Source of the DNA: a virus
Virus genome (UHGV): UHGV-0099063
Length of the DNA: 15,441 bases
Strand: one strand, 5' to 3'
Part shown: one piece after another, positions 3,583-11,931 of the stretch
Layout of the letters: every line of letters starts with the position of its first letter
Position numbering within the stretch: position 1 is the first letter of the stretch
Translations under genes and position numbers: made by a program
The notes under the pieces: generated by a model
The model's input: the letters and a program-made list of their open reading frames with translations, nothing else
What the model was told of the DNA's origin: nothing
The model's database searches: none

Positions 3583-3759
3583 TCATTTCCTCGCACGATG
3601 TCTTAGCCACCGGATATCCCACAGGTGAGCCGTGTAATTGAAGGTTTTTACGTCAGATTCTTTTGGGATTGGCTTGCGTTTATTTCTGGAGCGTTTCGTT
3701 GGAAGGTATTTGCAGTTTTCGCAGATGATGTCGGTGATACTTCGTCGCTGTCGTCTCAT
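3583..3759 (-). CDS. ninE: NinE
   Basis: From ATG 3759-3757: [58 protein letters not shown], matching lambda/DLP12 NinE as recalled. Its ATG overlaps the TGA of the upstream HNH ORF. Confidence 0.85.
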
Positions 3760-4358
3760 GCCGCCCTGTCTCCCCATCTTGCTTTCATTGTTTCATTTGC
3801 AAATCGCCAGAATCTTCCTTTGTGATATGAGCTTTCGCCATTACAGCAACGACTAATTGACGAACTATCAAATCCTTCTCTGACAGCATCCATAGCTGCT
3901 TCATAATAAACCTCCTCCCCAGTTTTCATGTCAGTAGAAATAACAGCTTTACTGGCAGGATGATCACCACTAAATTTACCTAGCGATATAGGTATTCTTC
4001 CATTTTGTTTATATCCGTGCTTTGAGTTTTCAGAATGTGATACCCATTCAAGGTTTTCAGCCCTATTGTCATCTCTTTGCCCATTTTTGTGATTAACTAC
4101 CAAGCCATCACAGAACCCTGTACAGAATGCTTTCGCAACTATCCTGTGGGCGCTGTATTTCTTACCGTATACCTTTATTTGAAGATATCCTGTCGACTTG
4201 CACTTGAATGGTTTTACGCTAGTGCCATTAATTATTTTCTTATATGGCCTCTGTCTGGTTGATGTTACTGTAATTTCCCTCGTAATAGACCTGAAATTTC
4301 CTTTATTGCTAACCTGATAAAATGGAATTCCTTCGATATCTACCCAAACCTCAATCAT
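3756..4358 (-). CDS. HNH endonuclease (NUMOD4-like N-terminus plus HNH_3 motif), inserted into the 3' end of ninB
   Basis: 200 aa; N-terminal [20 protein letters not shown] (NUMOD4-like), then [25 protein letters not shown] (HNH_3). GGAGG lies 4 nt upstream of the ATG, inside the last ninB codons. The last nine residues, KARWGDRAA, match the recalled C-terminus of lambda NinB. Confidence 0.8.
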
Positions 4359-5313: not shown

Positions 5314-5925
5314 TTATCTTTTTTTAACACGCTTTCGAGTCCTTTTAGATTTTTCCTTAAGATATTCCGCAAGTTTATCCTCATCATTATTAAATTGAGA
5401 TAAAAGCTCATGCTCGCAATTAAGTGCTTTACTCGCATAAGTTCCATATAGTTTCTTTCTTGCTAGTGCTGCTATGAATGCTGCATCTTCTTTGCTATCG
5501 AAATACCCTAACGATATTGTCTTATTTTTATAACCAACATAAGACTTCCACCTGCCAGTTGTCTTATCCCAAGACACTCCAATCGCACCGGATGTGTTTA
5601 ACCTATTCCCTACAATGTTTCTTGCATTCTGCTCCTCTGTTGCCAGTCTTAGATTTGAAATCCTATTGTCAAGTCTGTTCCCATTTACATGATCAATAAA
5701 CTTAGGAGGCCATTTTTTGTATACATAGAACCAAGCAAGTCTATGCGCATAATACAAAACATTATTTATGCTAATGCATATATAACCACCACTAACACCT
5801 CCAGCAATACTACCTTTTACTCTTACTACTGAATTTGTTTTTAGCCATTTAAATATTCCTGTTTCTGAGTCATATGATAATGTTGACAGAAGCTCATCGT
5901 GATCAATTAGTTTTTTTATTCGCAT
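5314..5925 (-). CDS. HNH endonuclease (HNH_3 plus AP2-type domain), paralogue of the 792-1304 gene
   Basis: 203 aa; AHRLAWFYVYKKWPPKFIDHVNGNRLDNRISNLRLATEEQN (HNH_3) and GVSWDKTTGRWKSYV...LGYFDSKEDAAFIAALAR (AP2-like); collinear with HNH 1. Strongly AT-rich; no clear Shine-Dalgarno before its ATG. Confidence 0.8.
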   Translation of the reverse strand: MRIKKLIDHDELLSTLSYDSETGIFKWLKTNSVVRVKGSIAGGVSGGYICISINNVLYYAHRLAWFYVYKKWPPKFIDHVNGNRLDNRISNLRLATEEQNARNIVGNRLNTSGAIGVSWDKTTGRWKSYVGYKNKTISLGYFDSKEDAAFIAALARKKLYGTYASKALNCEHELLSQFNNDEDKLAEYLKEKSKRTRKRVKKR

Positions 5926-6273: not shown

Positions 6274-7709
6274 CAGAATCCTCCTTTCTTCTTGGACTGC
6301 GGTTCCTCGCGTTCACGTCGGCGCATTTCAGCAGACTGTTGGTCTGTGTCATAAATAGCGCCATTTGCCTGAATGCAATACACCGTGCCGGTATTGCCAT
6401 GACGATTGAGGCGAAGGATTAGTTCGGTTTCACCAGGAGGAACGCTGTCATCAAAAGCACCTTCACGATGGATCCCCACCCAATAATCGCAATCCTGTTC
6501 AATCTGCCCTGTATCTCGTGAGTCACTTGGTAATGGGCGTTTATTGGTTCGGCTTTCCAGTGCGCGGTTAAGCTGTGTCAGAAGCACAACAACGCAATCA
6601 AGCTCTTTGGCAAGGTTCTTCAGTCCTTTGGTGATCATGCCGTAAGCAAGGTCGTTGCGATCGGCCTTTTCAGCGGTCATTAGTGTCAGGTAATCGACCA
6701 GAATCATGCCAACACATCCTTTTTCTCGCTTGATTCGACGGCTTTCGCTGACGATTTGAGCCAGAGATAATCCCGGCGTGTCGTCGATGTAAAGCAGGTC
6801 GATTTCACTCAAGCGATTGGCTGTTTCGATCGCCCTGTTGAAGTCACCATCGTAATCACCCTGATAGCCGTCATCAGCGTCATTTGTCGCCGGAAGGTAA
6901 AAAATATTCGGGTTAACACCTGACTTCTGTCCTACCAGTTTTTCCAGTATCTGGTCACCGGGCATTTCAAGGCTGAACATCAGAGCGGGCTTTTTCTCAT
7001 GCACTGCGCAGTTGATTGCCATCTGGCTGTATAGCGTCGTTTTCCCCATCTTAGGGCGAGCGCCAATGACAAACAGAGAGCCTTTCACCAGACCTTTCGG
7101 TGACAGCATCCTGTCCAGCGATGGGATCCCTGTGCTCATTCCCCGTTGTTCGCCTGATGGGTCAAATCGCTTCTCAAGGTCGCTAACCCAGTCTTCCATG
7201 ACCTCGCCAAATGAGCGAAGGCCGCGACGCGATCCGGTTTTTGCATGGTCTGTCAGTTGCGTGAAAATCGCCTGAATAGCTTCGTACTTCTGCGTCGCAG
7301 TCATTCCGTTGCGGGAATAGAGCAATTCCGTCGCTTCAGTCATGCGGTTGATGGCGTAGCGTTCCATTGCGGTTTCGCGAACCTGCATTGCATAGGCAAC
7401 GATGTTTGCGGCGCTCGGCGTGTTCTTTGCGATCTCAGCGATATAAGCAAAACCGCCAACAGACGCCGTTAACGATTTACGCTCCAGTTCATCGAAAAGC
7501 GTCAGGCCATCTACTGGCTTTTGCTCCCGGTGCATTCTGGTTATTTCTTCGAAAAGGATTTTGTGTGGTCGGCTGTAAAATGAATCAGGCTTCAGCATCG
7601 CCAGAACTTTCTGGACGCGCTCACTGCTGTCATCATCCAGAAGCAATCCACCAATCACCGCCTGCTCTGCCTCGATGCTATGGGGCGGCGCATAAAAATT
7701 ATCGGTCAT
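6273..7709 (-). CDS. replicative DNA helicase, DnaB family (P22 gene 12-like)
   Basis: N-terminal DnaB-type helical domain (SIEAEQAVIGGLLLDDD), Walker A GARPKMGKTTL, and RecA-like core motifs. Preferred start is ATG 7709-7707 (GAGGGTG upstream), overlapping the end of the O-like gene. Confidence 0.9.
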   Translation of the reverse strand: MTDNFYAPPHSIEAEQAVIGGLLLDDDSSERVQKVLAMLKPDSFYSRPHKILFEEITRMHREQKPVDGLTLFDELERKSLTASVGGFAYIAEIAKNTPSAANIVAYAMQVRETAMERYAINRMTEATELLYSRNGMTATQKYEAIQAIFTQLTDHAKTGSRRGLRSFGEVMEDWVSDLEKRFDPSGEQRGMSTGIPSLDRMLSPKGLVKGSLFVIGARPKMGKTTLYSQMAINCAVHEKKPALMFSLEMPGDQILEKLVGQKSGVNPNIFYLPATNDADDGYQGDYDGDFNRAIETANRLSEIDLLYIDDTPGLSLAQIVSESRRIKREKGCVGMILVDYLTLMTAEKADRNDLAYGMITKGLKNLAKELDCVVVLLTQLNRALESRTNKRPLPSDSRDTGQIEQDCDYWVGIHREGAFDDSVPPGETELILRLNRHGNTGTVYCIQANGAIYDTDQQSAEMRRREREEPQSKKKGGF

Positions 7710-8589
7710 CGTGTTCACCCTCACGAACTTTCAGGTAGGTATTATCGTTAAGCAGGAAATCAAATCCCTTTTTGTGCCAGACGGTTCCTCGCTGATGGTT
7801 TGGGCGCTCTTCGAACATCCATCGGCAATTTTCGCCTACGTATCTCAAATAATTTCTCCAGTCCTGCATCGTGAACCCATGCCCGTCAAGCTGGCGGGTT
7901 ATCACTCCGGCTTTGCGCCAGAACGTTCGGATCTGGTTTTTACGCTTGTCATTCAGTGCGCGGATTCTTGGCGCTTCAGGAAGGATTTCGTGGTAAGCAT
8001 CGACAACATCCTGACAGCTAACGGAAGGTTTTTTCTTGTCAGACTTTTTGTCTGCTGTGGCACTCTCTAATACGTCAGTATTAGAGATATTATTTATATT
8101 ATTGTTTATGGACAACCGTTGGACAACCGTTGGACAATCTCCGCTGAGAGCCTCGCCATTACTGGTGTTTGCGTTGGACAACCGTTGGACAACCGTTGGA
8201 CAATTTTTTGCCTGAAAATCGTCATATTTAACGATTGTAAACAGGCTAAATTTCTTCCCCATCGAGCAAATATTAAGCATCCCTTTCGACTCAAAAGTCC
8301 GTAATAAGCTCCGAACTTTGTTGTCGGGGATGAATGTTTCTCTGACCAGCGACGGGCGTCCAGTTATCATCTGACCGCGATCAACAGTTATCGGCCCGAT
8401 ATCCGTATTGACGACAGTAGATTCGTGATTAGCCTTGAGGATTAAGTGAAGCCAAAGATGTACTGCCTGAGAGTCCTTATAGAGCCTGCTGTCCATAAAC
8501 TGGCGGTGTATATAGGCATACCCCATACTGGATGCCTCCTGATGTTGTACAGGGTTATGCCTGTAATCAGCTAACTTAACGACGCCCAT
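7699..8589 (-). CDS. replication initiation protein (lambda O-like) containing the ori iterons
   Basis: 296 aa ORF immediately upstream of the helicase. Its coding sequence carries two clusters of direct repeats that translate to repeated PTVVQRLS peptides, as the lambda O gene does around ori. Start 8589 (AGGAG upstream) or internal ATG 8526. Confidence 0.8.
   Translation of the reverse strand: MGVVKLADYRHNPVQHQEASSMGYAYIHRQFMDSRLYKDSQAVHLWLHLILKANHESTVVNTDIGPITVDRGQMITGRPSLVRETFIPDNKVRSLLRTFESKGMLNICSMGKKFSLFTIVKYDDFQAKNCPTVVQRLSNANTSNGEALSGDCPTVVQRLSINNNINNISNTDVLESATADKKSDKKKPSVSCQDVVDAYHEILPEAPRIRALNDKRKNQIRTFWRKAGVITRQLDGHGFTMQDWRNYLRYVGENCRWMFEERPNHQRGTVWHKKGFDFLLNDNTYLKVREGEHDDR
8110..8203. 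repeat. origin of replication: 11-bp iterons GGACAACCGTT in two clusters, next to an AT-rich tract
   Basis: Direct repeats at 8110-8120 and 8121-8131 with a partial copy at 8132-8137, then 8176-8186 and 8187-8197 with a partial copy at 8198-8203. An AT-rich stretch at about 8060-8105 lies downstream in the direction of O transcription. Confidence 0.7.
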
Positions 8590-8771: not shown

Positions 8772-9050
8772 TCAGGCCTCAAAACTGTTGCCGCAGTCTT
8801 GAGGCTTTTCTTTTGTCAGCACCATGGCTACTTTCTTTGCCAGCTCCGCTAATTCCTCGTCTTCAACACCCCACTCCAGCACAGCCAGAAGCATGGCCAT
8901 CTTTGGGATAAAGCTGTCTTTCCATCGCGAAATTTGCGATTCATTGATCCCTAATGCATCAGCAACCTTTCGCTGACCACGTACAGCAATTCGATTTAGG
9001 ATGTTGCTTGTAATTGCATTCGCTTTCTTGCGAGTACTTGTAAGTTGCAT
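8772..9050 (-). CDS. cII: CII-like transcriptional activator
   Basis: From ATG 9050-9048: ...GINESQISRWKDSFIPKMAMLLAVLEWGVEDEELAELAKKVAMVLT, matching the recalled lambda CII core (SQISRWKRDWIPKFSMLLAVLEWGV). AAGGAA 9 nt upstream. The upstream extension in the ORF track would run through nutR. Confidence 0.8.
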   Translation of the reverse strand: MQLTSTRKKANAITSNILNRIAVRGQRKVADALGINESQISRWKDSFIPKMAMLLAVLEWGVEDEELAELAKKVAMVLTKEKPQDCGNSFEA

Positions 9051-9108
9051 ATGTAAGTATTTCCTTAACAAATAAGAAGTTATGCGCACCAGCTGATGCG
9101 CGTTGTAT

Positions 9109-9152
9109 TCCCGCATTTCGGCGGGAATGAGGACCATGACTGTTAAAGAGCG
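9109..9152 (-). promoter_or_regulatory. nutR: boxA plus boxB hairpin
   Basis: Minus strand reads CGCTCTTTAACA (boxA, plus 9141-9152), then 14 nt, then hairpin TCCCGCCGAAATGCGGGA (boxB, plus 9109-9126); located between the cro stop and the cII start. The boxB is identical to the one in nutL. Confidence 0.65.
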
Positions 9153-9159
9153 GTGTTAC

Positions 9160-9384
9160 TTATGCTGCCTGATTCGGTTTTGGAAACAGGTGTGGCAAAT
9201 CGGGGCGAATTTCGTAAGCCTTGATCTGCCCTCCAGTGGCGTTAACGATGGCGGTAACTTTCTCTGGAGAGACCAACCCGCCTTTCAGCCATTTGTGTAC
9301 TGCTGGCTGCGTTACACCACACTTGTCGGCAAGGCGCTTTTGGCTACCGACAATTTTCAAGGCTCGTTGAATTACTAAATTCAT
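9160..9384 (-). CDS. cro: Cro-like repressor (YdaS/Cro-type HTH)
   Basis: From ATG 9384-9382 (GAGG 8 nt upstream): HTH segment QKRLADKCGVTQPAVHKWLKGG. Divergent from cI across the operator region and followed by nutR. Confidence 0.8.
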   Translation of the reverse strand: MNLVIQRALKIVGSQKRLADKCGVTQPAVHKWLKGGLVSPEKVTAIVNATGGQIKAYEIRPDLPHLFPKPNQAA

Positions 9385-9407
9385 GAGCATACCTCTTGTG
9401 GTCATTA

Positions 9408-9484
9408 CTTATAACCAAAGATAACTCAAGTTATAAAAAATAGCAATAACCTTTGTTATTTTACTTTGGATAACCGTAGTTATA
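9408..9484. promoter_or_regulatory. right operator region OR: three 14-bp palindromes ATAAC-N4-GTTAT
   Basis: ATAACtcaaGTTAT (9421-9434), ATAACctttGTTAT (9446-9459), ATAACcgtaGTTAT (9470-9483), spaced about 25 bp apart between the divergent cro and cI starts, plus an extra half-site at 9411-9416. Confidence 0.65.
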
Positions 9485-9495
9485 GATTTGTGAGT

Positions 9496-10203
9496 ATGAA
9501 AACATTCGCAGAAAGACTAAATGCAGCCATGAGCTCAGCAGGGGTATCACAATCACAGCTTGCTGACATGGTTGGAATATCTCAGCCAGCCATACAGAAG
9601 ATGTCGTCCGGTAAAACAAACGGATCTCGCAAGATGGTTGAATTAGCCAATGCTTTAAAAGTGCGTCCTGAATGGCTTAGTTCTGGTATTGGTGAAATGA
9701 GGGATGGTGCACATGAAGAACCATCCAATGTCCGTGAGTCATCTTTAAAAGCTGTGGTATGGGAAGACATTAAAAGAAACGATGACGAGTTTGTTGCGTT
9801 GCCTCTTCTTAACGTTTCGCTTTCAGCTGGAAGCGGTAGCTGCGAGCTAGAGGAATCATCGGAGTTCTCTTTGGTTTTCAGAAAGCACTATCTGAAAAAG
9901 ATGGGAGTATCAGAAAGATCAGCCAAGCTAGTTAGGGTTGTAGGGCAAAGCATGGAACCAACGCTTCACGATGGCGATGTTGTTGGTGTTAACACGCAAG
10001 ATACCACAATCAGAGATGGTAAAACCTACGCTATTTGCCAGTCTGATTTGTTACGAGTAAAAACATTAATCGCCACCCCTACATCGGTGATAATCAGATC
10101 AATAAATCGCGAAGAGTACCCGGATGAAGTAATGGATAGAGATGAATTTCATGAAACCGTAAGGATTATTGGCAGAGTATTCTGGTCGTCTCATAGTTGG
10201 TAA
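9496..10203 (+). CDS. cI: CI-type prophage repressor (N-terminal HTH, C-terminal S24 LexA-like autopeptidase)
   Basis: HTH SQSQLADMVGISQPAIQKM; candidate Ala-Gly cleavage site in LSAGSG; catalytic Ser in GQSMEP and a downstream Lys in LLRVKTL. ATG 9496 lies 12 nt after the third operator with no clear SD, compatible with a leaderless pRM-type transcript. Confidence 0.9.
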   Translation: MKTFAERLNAAMSSAGVSQSQLADMVGISQPAIQKMSSGKTNGSRKMVELANALKVRPEWLSSGIGEMRDGAHEEPSNVRESSLKAVVWEDIKRNDDEFVALPLLNVSLSAGSGSCELEESSEFSLVFRKHYLKKMGVSERSAKLVRVVGQSMEPTLHDGDVVGVNTQDTTIRDGKTYAICQSDLLRVKTLIATPTSVIIRSINREEYPDEVMDRDEFHETVRIIGRVFWSSHSW

Positions 10204-10243
10204 CCGATAATCAGAAGAAGACTTACGGAAGTGCGGAGGGATA

Positions 10244-10540
10244 ATGGAATTTCTGATAGTTTTTGTTGTTGTTTTGGTCATCATTCTTTTTGTTTTGCTA
10301 AGCATTAGCAAAAAGCTATCTCAAATGATTGAACATAGCTCTAATCGCGCAAAAGAAGAAGAGCATCTAATTGATATAAAAGAGATTCTCTCTGATATAA
10401 AAATCACATTAGATGAAATAAAATACACAACAGATCTAATTGAACAGTATAAAATACCAACCCCAAACGAGAGAAAAGCAATAGATCAATATCGTATTGA
10501 CTTAGAAATCGACGAAATGCTAAGCAAAAGAAAAGACTAA
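10244..10540 (+). CDS. small membrane-anchored protein co-transcribed with cI (rex/sie-position gene), function unknown
   Basis: 98 aa; N-terminal hydrophobic helix EFLIVFVVVLVIILFVLLSI, then a charged, probably helical domain. GGAGGG 4-5 nt before the ATG; starts 40 nt after the cI stop; markedly AT-rich relative to flanks; followed by a strong terminator. Confidence 0.65.
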   Translation: MEFLIVFVVVLVIILFVLLSISKKLSQMIEHSSNRAKEEEHLIDIKEILSDIKITLDEIKYTTDLIEQYKIPTPNERKAIDQYRIDLEIDEMLSKRKD

Positions 10541-10545
10541 AAACA

Positions 10546-10572
10546 CCCGGCCTCAGCGCCGGGTTTTCTTTT
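10546..10572 (+). terminator. rho-independent terminator ending the cI operon
   Basis: Stem CCCGGC/GCCGGG (10546-10551 and 10558-10563), 6-nt loop, followed by TTTTCTTTT (10564-10572). Confidence 0.75.
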
Positions 10573-10694
10573 CCTGCCGTTCACCACCCAATCAACCATC
10601 CTCATCATAGACAAGCATCAAGCCAAAGGTAACACCTTCACCCCGCACGTAAGCCCTCAAACACCAATCAATCAGCAACATTTACAAAAATAAA

Positions 10695-10780
10695 ATACCT
10701 TTGTTATCCATCACTTATAACTTATTTACCATAAAATATAAATTAGGTTATTGACCACACCTATAACCTAAGTTATCTTT
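10695..10780 (+). promoter_or_regulatory. left operator/promoter region OL-pL
   Basis: Operator-type palindromes ATAACctaaGTTAT (10763-10776) and variant ATACCtttGTTAT (10695-10707), plus a TTATAAC half-site. Candidate pL: -35 TTGACC (10750-10755), 17-bp spacer, -10 TATCTT (10773-10778) overlapping the operator. Confidence 0.5.
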
Positions 10781-10825
10781 AAGCCATCAGCAGGACGCTG
10801 GAAGCCAAACGGAACAGATTGGCAG

Positions 10826-10866
10826 GCTCTTTAACATTGATGGGATTGTCCCGCCGAAATGCGGGA
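10826..10866 (+). promoter_or_regulatory. nutL: boxA plus boxB hairpin
   Basis: GCTCTTTAACA (10826-10836), then hairpin TCCCGCCGAAATGCGGGA (10849-10866), identical to the nutR boxB; downstream of the candidate pL and upstream of N. Confidence 0.65.
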
Positions 10867-11296
10867 ACTGAGTTTAACCAAACAGGAGGTGCCGTAATGG
10901 TGCACTAACGCGGTTAGACCGCAGCCGAAAGGCAATGCAGCAGTAATGATGCTGCCCTGAGTCGCCATTGAGCGAGCCTGCTTAGCATCGGGTTAGGGTC
11001 AATATATTAAAAGTAGCTCCGGTAAAGCAGCGCGAATGCCAGACGCGCACCGGTTATCAGCGGCGATGAAGCGGCAGAGACTCAATGGCATGAGCGCGCT
11101 CACTGCGAGAGTGTGAGTCAAAGAGTAGTTGGCTTTGGGATTGGGTGAATGCGCAGACTGATGCGATATGACCTGCACTGGCGAGGAGACGATCCTCAGG
11201 GGGTCACTAGGCGTGATAATGACCAGGCGAAGCACTAACCAAGCCGGAGATCAGTACCGTCCACCTAATCACCAAAGCCAATCATCGGAGTTCAAC

Positions 11297-11566
11297 ATGA
11301 TAATCGTTACTTATCTGGCTGATGATAACGCCAGAAATCGCCGCAGAGCACGCAGACAGGCTCAACGTGAACAGGCAATGCAAGAACAGCGATTGGCACG
11401 AAAAATTGCGCTAAAGCTCTCTGGTTGCGTCAGAGCAGATAAAGCAGCATCACTCGGAAGCCTTCGCTGCAAGAAGGCAGATGAATGCAGTGGAAGTATT
11501 TGCCTGCCAAACGTAGCTATTTACGCGGCAGGCTACCGGAAATCAAAACAACTGACGGCGAGGTAA
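11297..11566 (+). CDS. N: N-type antiterminator (P22 gp24-like) with N-terminal arginine-rich motif
   Basis: From ATG 11297 (GGAG 6 nt upstream): MIIVTYLADDNARNRRRARRQAQRE... with C-terminus LPNVAIYAAGYRKSKQLTAR, matching the recalled P22 gp24 (MTVITY...LPGVALYAAGHRKSKQITAR). The upstream in-frame extension from 11168 lacks an RBS and would bury the arginine-rich motif. Confidence 0.8.
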   Translation: MIIVTYLADDNARNRRRARRQAQREQAMQEQRLARKIALKLSGCVRADKAASLGSLRCKKADECSGSICLPNVAIYAAGYRKSKQLTAR

Positions 11567-11568
11567 TT

Positions 11569-11931
11569 ATGGGTCAGGAAGAAAAATATGAGCTTAAAAA
11601 GCTCATTGAAGAAGACGCCATAGAAGAAATTGCAGCATTAACAACAGCTATAAAGAATATTAGGTATGCGCTAAATACGCTTATCTCCTCATGCGACAAA
11701 AATAGCAGGGAATTTTTGATACTTGGCGCAGCTCTAGGAATAGTTGATGCGGCAACGCTTCACCTAATTACTCATGACGATATTCTTATTGAGCCGTATG
11801 AAACATTACTGCTTGTCAGGCAAAAAATGGCTGATGCCGCAGCAAATGGAGACATTCAACTTTACATCGACTTAAGGAAAGTATTAAGGCGAATGGTCAG
11901 AACTGAAGGAGATATCCCCCTGACAAAGTAA
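11569..11931 (+). CDS. hypothetical early protein, 120 aa, between N and ral
   Basis: ATG 11569 sits 2 nt after the N stop (start MGQEEKYELKK...). Acidic, predicted helical; no family recognised. Confidence 0.55.
   Translation: MGQEEKYELKKLIEEDAIEEIAALTTAIKNIRYALNTLISSCDKNSREFLILGAALGIVDAATLHLITHDDILIEPYETLLLVRQKMADAAANGDIQLYIDLRKVLRRMVRTEGDIPLTK

Follow-up and report, generated by a model that had tools for sequence, protein, structure and literature searches.

Genes on the repressor transcript are what a dormant prophage gives its host, and every characterised gene of this slot (rexAB, hex, stk and bstA) has brought to light its own way of excluding phages or controlling the lysogen. The virus genome UHGV-0099063, a stretch of 15,441 nucleotides that we call the window, carries behind its cI gene a 98-codon open reading frame, ORF98, whose RefSeq name is "hypothetical protein". 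Its family has no known fold or domain and is present in Stx1 prophages of O26:H11. What, then, does this gene do for the lysogen? On the analysis described here, ORF98 would be a credible candidate for a protective or stabilising factor of the lysogen.

Layout of the immunity region and predicted expression of ORF98

The ORF list and Pfam matches identify the window as early-region DNA of a lambdoid E. coli prophage, and positions 9400-10800 are 99.4% identical to the Stx1a-converting phage Stx1a_10051. Genes on the minus strand, read leftward, are cro, CII (Pfam Phage_CII, 1.5e-44), a replication protein, a DnaB-type helicase, NinB, YbcO, RusA and Q; on the plus strand, read rightward, they are cI, ORF98 and N, with an ERF recombinase further on. 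The cro-like repressor gene (9160..9384, minus strand) matches Pfam YdaS_toxin/HTH_3/P22_Cro and corresponds to WP_001054987.1 in identical E. coli loci; it encodes 74 amino acids in RefSeq relatives, and the longest ORF reaches 9405. The operon's first cistron, cI (9496..10203, plus strand), encodes 235 amino acids with Peptidase_S24 (1.5e-17) and HTH_3 matches in Pfam, its start being taken from the RefSeq annotation WP_000846394.1. Between cro and cI, a pattern search located the three OR operators (9421-9434, 9446-9459 and 9470-9483) as perfect copies of the palindrome ATAACNNNNGTTAT. This palindrome has four perfect copies in the window, all in OR or OL: the three in OR and one at 10763.

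Downstream of ORF98, the OL operators (10694-10707, 10738-10751 and 10763-10776, plus strand) include degenerate copies of ATAACNNNNGTTAT at 10738 and 10694, and they overlap a pL-like promoter found by promoter scan (TTGACC at 10751-10756, a 17-nt spacer and TATCTT at 10774-10779, plus strand). Next on the same strand is a site, read by eye, that we take to be nutL-like from the nut consensus as generally known (10826..10866); it consists of the boxA GCTCTTTAACA (10826-10836) and a boxB-like hairpin (10849-10866). The N antiterminator ORF (11168..11566, plus strand) matches Pfam N_peptide over residues 53-132 (4.7e-15) and PHROG 271. This ORF is probably annotated too long, with the true start at an internal ATG, at 11297, that immediately precedes the arginine-rich motif DNARNRRRARRQ. 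A scan of positions 9000-11700 against Rfam returned no RNA family. The resulting order, cI, ORF98, terminator, OL/pL, nutL and N, matches the lambda order cI-rexAB-timm-OL/pL-N, and ORF98 thus occupies the rexAB slot, the position that a first-pass annotation of the sequence had assigned to it.

That annotation had also described a 98-amino-acid ORF 40 nt behind cI with its own strong ribosome-binding site and a strong terminator, and each of these features is found. The cI stop lies at 10203, and ORF98 (10244-10540, plus strand) begins with an ATG at 10244. Within the 40-nt spacer (10204..10243), a GGAGG at 10235-10239 lies 4 nt ahead of the start codon, and an SD-like motif precedes the gene in the homologues examined as well. 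The gene is followed by an intrinsic, timm-like terminator (10545..10572, plus strand) with a 7-bp stem containing six GC pairs (10545-10564) and then TTTTCTTTT. Its folding energy is -13.7 kcal/mol (z = -3.3), only 1 of 200 shuffles folds as well, and the element scores terminator-like on the minus strand too. A hairpin plus T-run is found 3' of the gene in most family loci. Beyond the terminator, the spacer that leads to OL (10572-10690) is C-rich and G-poor on the plus strand, with a GC skew of about -0.40; within it, CCAATCAAYC... recurs as an imperfect direct repeat (10588-10605 and 10664-10681), and it has no ORF and no Rfam match.

Signals that might separate the expression of ORF98 from that of cI were sought at the junction. 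An attenuator or terminator between the two genes was rejected, as the junction shows no significant RNA fold (z = +0.74) and a terminator scan of the gap found none. Also rejected was a promoter belonging to ORF98 itself: promoter-like sites are not above chance (3 found versus 4.0 expected), and the sole candidate, TTGGCA-17-CATAGT (10169-10197), is a 9/12 match situated beyond the limits of the conserved cassette. As the DNA shared with Citrobacter phages starts at 10234, only 10 nt ahead of the ATG, the cassette has no space for a promoter. Given no promoter of its own and no barrier behind cI, we infer that ORF98 is co-transcribed with cI. The Shine-Dalgarno sequence, ORF98 and the terminator would then form a promoter-less cassette that serves as the second cistron of the cI operon, and its synthesis would go along with that of cI, in the lysogen via pRM and during establishment via pRE. 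Such arrangements have precedents: rexAB, 933W stk and 434 hex are all co-transcribed with cI (PMC3564112). Similarly, RNA-seq has shown cI and bstA to form one operon, and accessory genes are known to concentrate at a hot spot between cI and N (PMC7067206).

A rare family and its place behind the repressor

A profile search matched ORF98 to PHROG 18389 over its full length (1-98 of 98, E = 5.2e-62), and this PHROG is also matched by 16/16 aligned family members. Because PHROG 18389 carries no annotated function, membership names the family and explains nothing. No significant match to ORF98 was obtained in Pfam or NCBIfam, and searches of the PDB and of folds and profiles returned generic coiled coils only, none of them significant. 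In PADLOC-DB v2 the best match was ZorB (E = 0.0089, 13.5 bits), which involves the TM region only and falls below significance; together with sub-threshold matches to DUF5385 and MscL it was dismissed as driven by the TM helix or by composition. Literature searches for the protein accessions and for slot-specific descriptions found nothing on the ORF98 protein. Hence the initial impression that the protein belongs to no recognised family agrees with all of these searches, and the family is new and uncharacterised, in a known kind of slot.

The family is also very rare. ORF98 occurs in 102 of 5,426 complete E. coli genomes (~2%), always on the chromosome, and an exhaustive HMMER scan of 1.84 billion representatives, with an E cutoff of 1e-3, yielded only 13 clusters at 50% identity, with lengths of 94-126 amino acids. 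Named sources are E. coli, Citrobacter, Yersinia frederiksenii, Pelagicoccus and one Pseudomonas genome. When 50,697 phage records were searched by tblastn, ORF98 matched Stx1a_10051 only. A scan of GTDB genomes added one Pseudomonas locus only, a scan of metagenome contigs recovered near-identical copies only, and neither produced a new lambdoid subtype. Two E. coli strains, FXCREC035 (H22) and 3CM (H48), have two ORF98-query matches per genome, which may reflect two prophages with the same immunity cassette or hits split around an insertion.

To judge from its sequence, ORF98 is a real gene, because comparisons with diverged homologues give dN/dS values of 0.12-0.25, with synonymous sites near saturation, and because relatives are detected down to ~35% identity. 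Much the strongest regularity among these relatives concerns their location. Family members and S24 repressors were called by profile HMMs in every fetched locus, and the loci analysed come from Escherichia, Citrobacter, Yersinia and metagenomes. An S24 cI repressor lies directly upstream on the same strand in 55 of the 57 loci containing the family, with a gap of 1-54 nt between repressor and gene and, in one of the 55, an IS3 in between. The partner repressors fall into at least 7 classes whose mutual identity is only ~20-40%, and the Cro types differ too, while the family gene stays 35-77% identical across these classes. For example, the window and Citrobacter are 77% identical in this gene, 23% in cI and 32% in cro. 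On these sequence comparisons, the family keeps its position behind cI whatever the cI type, which is the main new result of this study.

Exceptions to this rule are few and distant. The 2 of 57 loci that have no adjacent repressor are a plasmid-like contig, carrying Rep3 plus an integrase, and a Pelagicoccus contig. Two further distant homologues, outside the 57, likewise have no adjacent repressor: one sits 3' of a gene for a SHOCT-domain protein, and the other, from Pseudomonas sp. (L067, 3989-4345), is chromosomal and lies among several small membrane-protein ORFs. The design of a TM helix plus YKLP motif is found outside lambdoid phages in Pseudomonas (L067), Pelagicoccus (L013), the Rep3 plasmid-like contig (L012) and L059.

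Comparisons with related prophages define the boundaries of the cassette. In SH2026Stx1, the cro-cI DNA is 94% identical to the window, and homology runs from cro through cI to 10205, 2 nt beyond the cI stop, resuming at the terminator (10545-10575, 87%) and at OL/pL (10676-10842, 94%). The intervening slot of SH2026Stx1 (L006, 3803-5229) spans ~1.4 kb and, in place of ORF98, holds a DUF3024 gene and two other ORFs, of 177 and 44 aa. A closely similar cro-cI region and the same terminator thus flank different cargo, which is direct evidence that cargo is exchanged at fixed breakpoints. The converse comparison is with Citrobacter phages, whose sole shared DNA, 10234-10567, comprises the Shine-Dalgarno sequence, the ORF and the terminator. 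In PA28, where cI is 79% identical in DNA, no gene is annotated in the slot. Within E. coli, the cassette tracks one cI allele, as cI at 95% identity or higher is present in 106 genomes and ORF98 in 102. In the Citrobacter-type loci, a convergent ORF of 68-74 amino acids abuts the cassette terminator (minus strand; L008 5324-5530, L010 5324-5548 and L014 2402-2611); the one in L014 has 69 amino acids and belongs to DUF2767, and the window has no counterpart.

These breakpoints bear on a further proposal of the first-pass annotation, that low GC content marks ORF98 as separately acquired. Its GC content of 30.3% is indeed far under that of cI (43.2%) and of the window (44.8%), only 0.18% of 297-nt windows are as AT-rich, and GC3 is likewise lower (27% versus 38%). 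However, the family gene is 4-16 points under its adjacent cI in 10/10 lambdoid loci examined, and because the whole family is AT-rich the composition is weak evidence for recent acquisition. In part it appears to follow from the many I, K, E and D residues of the protein. The good evidence for separate acquisition, as judged from these alignments, is the mosaic breakpoints rather than composition.

Strain 3CM (L004, 2525-4197) carries an IS3-family element between cI and a truncated, 75-aa ORF98 remnant. This allele amounts to a naturally occurring knock-out within a prophage that is otherwise similar, and it means that ORF98 is dispensable for prophage carriage. With 98 residues, four invariant positions and this knock-out strain, ORF98 is an easy target for study. 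It might be argued that a gene that is dispensable, interrupted by IS3 in one strain, rare and very AT-rich is simply a non-functional ORF hitch-hiking with the immunity region. We consider this extremely improbable, as dN/dS is 0.12-0.25 with saturated synonymous sites, and all 98 codons are intact in every E. coli-type locus examined save the IS3-disrupted one. Moreover, length, TM helix, motif, synteny and, in the homologues examined, the SD-like motif are kept down to ~35% identity, and a terminator lies 3' of the gene in most loci.

Protein design and candidate functions

The first-pass annotation read the product as a single N-terminal TM helix followed by a charged helical domain, and both parts of this description hold. 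The one hydrophobic segment, residues 3-21, has a mean Kyte-Doolittle value of +3.67, and the remainder is charged, with 14 K+R and 18 D+E. Two AlphaFold2 runs gave all-helical models with a break at residues 69-73 and mean pLDDT values of 81 and 79. Because pTM is ~0.3, the packing of the helices is undefined in these models, and a deeper alignment gave no better one (pTM 0.30). In the protein, the TM helix (~3-21) and KK (23-24) lead into a variable linker (~27-43), which is followed by a helical hairpin (44-97) that is conserved and has the turn Y69-K-I-P-T-P74. The hairpin carries the motif KYTTDxIEKYKLPxPxERKxIDQxRIDxEI. Conservation is highest in the Y-K-L/I-P-x-P turn and in helix 3, and Y69, P72, D81 and E88 are invariant; the anchor is conserved in hydrophobicity alone, and the linker is the most variable part.

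In 16/16 aligned members, the N-terminal flank is 0-8 residues long with no K/R before the TM helix, and 1-4 K/R occur within 15 residues past the hydrophobic segment. By the positive-inside rule, this distribution predicts an Nout-Cin topology. A cleavable signal peptide was considered and judged improbable, as no member has a basic n-region and the hydrophobic stretch extends over ~19-20 residues. In ORF98 and its closest relatives, the TM window contains zero polar or charged residues; some distant members score 1-2, where the fixed 19-residue window overruns into the flanks. An inert anchor joined to a conserved hairpin is the pattern of a passive tether that holds a binding module, and not that of a pore-former.

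This pattern is relevant to the most familiar occupants of the slot. Like ORF98, lambda rexA-rexB is the next thing 3' of cI, ahead of the terminator, OL/pL and N, and it provides a membrane-associated accessory product, ORF98 being presumably likewise transcribed with cI in lysogens. The Rex system, which excludes T4 rII and other phages by depolarising the membrane, combines a soluble sensor with a four-TM partner, RexB, a polytopic, channel-like membrane protein. In contrast, ORF98 is one gene, the only ORF between cI and the terminator, its protein would have a single inert anchor, and searches of Pfam, PHROG and PADLOC revealed no sequence similarity to RexA or RexB. A Rex-like abortive infection would have ORF98 form oligomers via its coiled-coil region and, when a superinfecting phage is sensed, permeabilise the inner membrane or depolarise it. 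We find this quite unlikely: the inert and poorly conserved anchor, a single TM helix with no polar or charged residue in ORF98 and its closest relatives, argues against a Rex-like pore. Furthermore, the conserved part is the cytoplasmic hairpin rather than the TM helix, there is no sensor partner gene, and PADLOC gave nothing past a composition-level match to ZorB (E = 0.009).

We instead favor a role in superinfection exclusion serving the lysogen, by means of a tethered blocker, and tentatively assign this reading a probability of roughly 40%. The product would be a single-pass inner-membrane protein whose chemically inert N-terminal anchor holds the conserved hairpin of ~55 residues at the cytoplasmic face of the membrane. 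There, the tethered hairpin might bind to some component of the host or of the incoming phage and block it, for example on the DNA-entry route, and exclusion would occur without pore formation. This reading is preferred because of the precedents in the slot, the predicted lysogenic expression and the membrane location. Small inner-membrane proteins that block DNA entry include T4 Imm and Sp, HK97 gp15 and lactococcal Sie2009, and genes of the Sie2009 type sit beside the repressor. P22 SieA is another small prophage-encoded protein of the inner membrane and prevents DNA entry, although it has 3-4 TM helices, with its best-conserved motif predicted to be cytoplasmic (PMC10883804), whereas ORF98 has one TM helix and a predicted cytoplasmic helical hairpin. 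No Pfam or PHROG match links ORF98 to P22 SieA or SieB, and the SieA motif FxRYPxEAxxFNK (PMC10883804) is absent from it. BTP1 BstA and 933W Stk, like ORF98, are products of single accessory genes right behind cI, and both act by abortive infection (PMC7067206, PMC3564112); however, BstA, a DNA-binding protein, and Stk, a kinase, are large and soluble and have no homology to ORF98.

Several observations nevertheless weigh against exclusion. Searches of Pfam, PHROG, NCBIfam and PADLOC linked ORF98 to none of the known proteins of exclusion or defence, and it matches none of the Pfam or PHROG families of SieA, Imm, Sp, gp15 and Sie2009. The side of the membrane also differs, as several injection blockers have periplasmic active parts; the active part of T4 Sp, for example, faces the periplasm, and the ORF98 hairpin is predicted to be cytoplasmic. 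Purifying selection (dN/dS 0.12-0.25) is explained no less well by a conserved cellular partner than by the target of an arms race. Such a partner fits at least equally with the retention of the motif in the absence of an adjacent cI, as seen in Pseudomonas, Pelagicoccus and the plasmid-like contig. Finally, the IS3 within the gene in strain 3CM indicates that keeping the prophage does not require it.

The main rival to exclusion is a Hex-like factor that stabilises or regulates lysogeny, in which the tethered domain would modulate induction or establishment rather than act on foreign phages. Its targets might be, for example, RecA-stimulated cleavage of the S24 repressor or FtsH-dependent turnover of CII/CIII. 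The precedent is 434 Hex, an accessory ORF in the same slot 3' of cI on the PRM transcript, which is unneeded for lysogeny itself and lowers spontaneous induction, showing that genes of this slot may both exclude foreign phages and stabilise the lysogen (PMC3564112). Hex is nonetheless a different kind of protein: it has 158 amino acids, its ORF overlaps cI at the end of that gene, and a soluble fragment of it has been purified (PMC3564112), whereas ORF98 has 98 amino acids, is encoded separately and is predicted to be membrane-anchored. The tblastn search of phage records, rather than an alignment with the Hex sequence itself, detected no similarity. Every lambdoid partner of the family is an S24 autocleaving repressor, and the linkage extends over at least 7 immunity classes, although this association does not discriminate between readings because all lambdoid cI proteins are of the S24 type. 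The predicted cytoplasmic domain and the purifying selection are likewise as expected for a conserved host partner. We consider a Hex-like role unlikely, given the great rarity of the family (13 clusters at 50% identity) and given that closely related cI genes manage without ORF98, that prophages bearing it still encode CIII, that a membrane anchor has no obvious role in the control of RecA, and that distant homologues have no adjacent repressor.

Alternatively, ORF98 might be a lysogenic-conversion factor that acts on host physiology, such as the envelope, stress tolerance or colonisation, and be unrelated to conflict between phages. Predicted expression in lysogens and membrane location would suit such a role, as would its presence in O26 Stx1 prophages and in the prophages that other pathogenic E. 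coli carry, and the distant Pseudomonas homologue lies among small membrane-protein genes. Lambda bor and lom are precedents (PMC7067206). This explanation seems improbable, since ORF98 has no homology to known virulence or stress factors and its strict restriction to the cI slot in enterobacterial phages suggests a phage-centred role.

More broadly, the family might represent a new single-protein exclusion or defence module linked to the cI operon, in which a tethered cytoplasmic-face hairpin with a YKLP-ER-D-E signature has been reused in Pseudomonas, Verrucomicrobia and plasmid-like elements. We put this broader idea forward as a doubtful one. An equally novel alternative is that the family provides a membrane-anchored general modulator of induction in prophages with S24 repressors.

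Other features of the window

The nin/Q region of the window contains three ORFs resembling HNH_3 homing endonucleases (792-1304, 3756-4358 and 5314-5925, all on the minus strand), two of them with an AP2 domain and one with NUMOD4, and the lowest GC content of the window (~5653) falls within one of these ORFs. Further along the same strand, a 296-aa ORF (7699-8589) occupies the position of the replication initiator, O. It has no Pfam match at E of 1e-4 or better, and the protein is annotated as "hypothetical" in strain 3CM.
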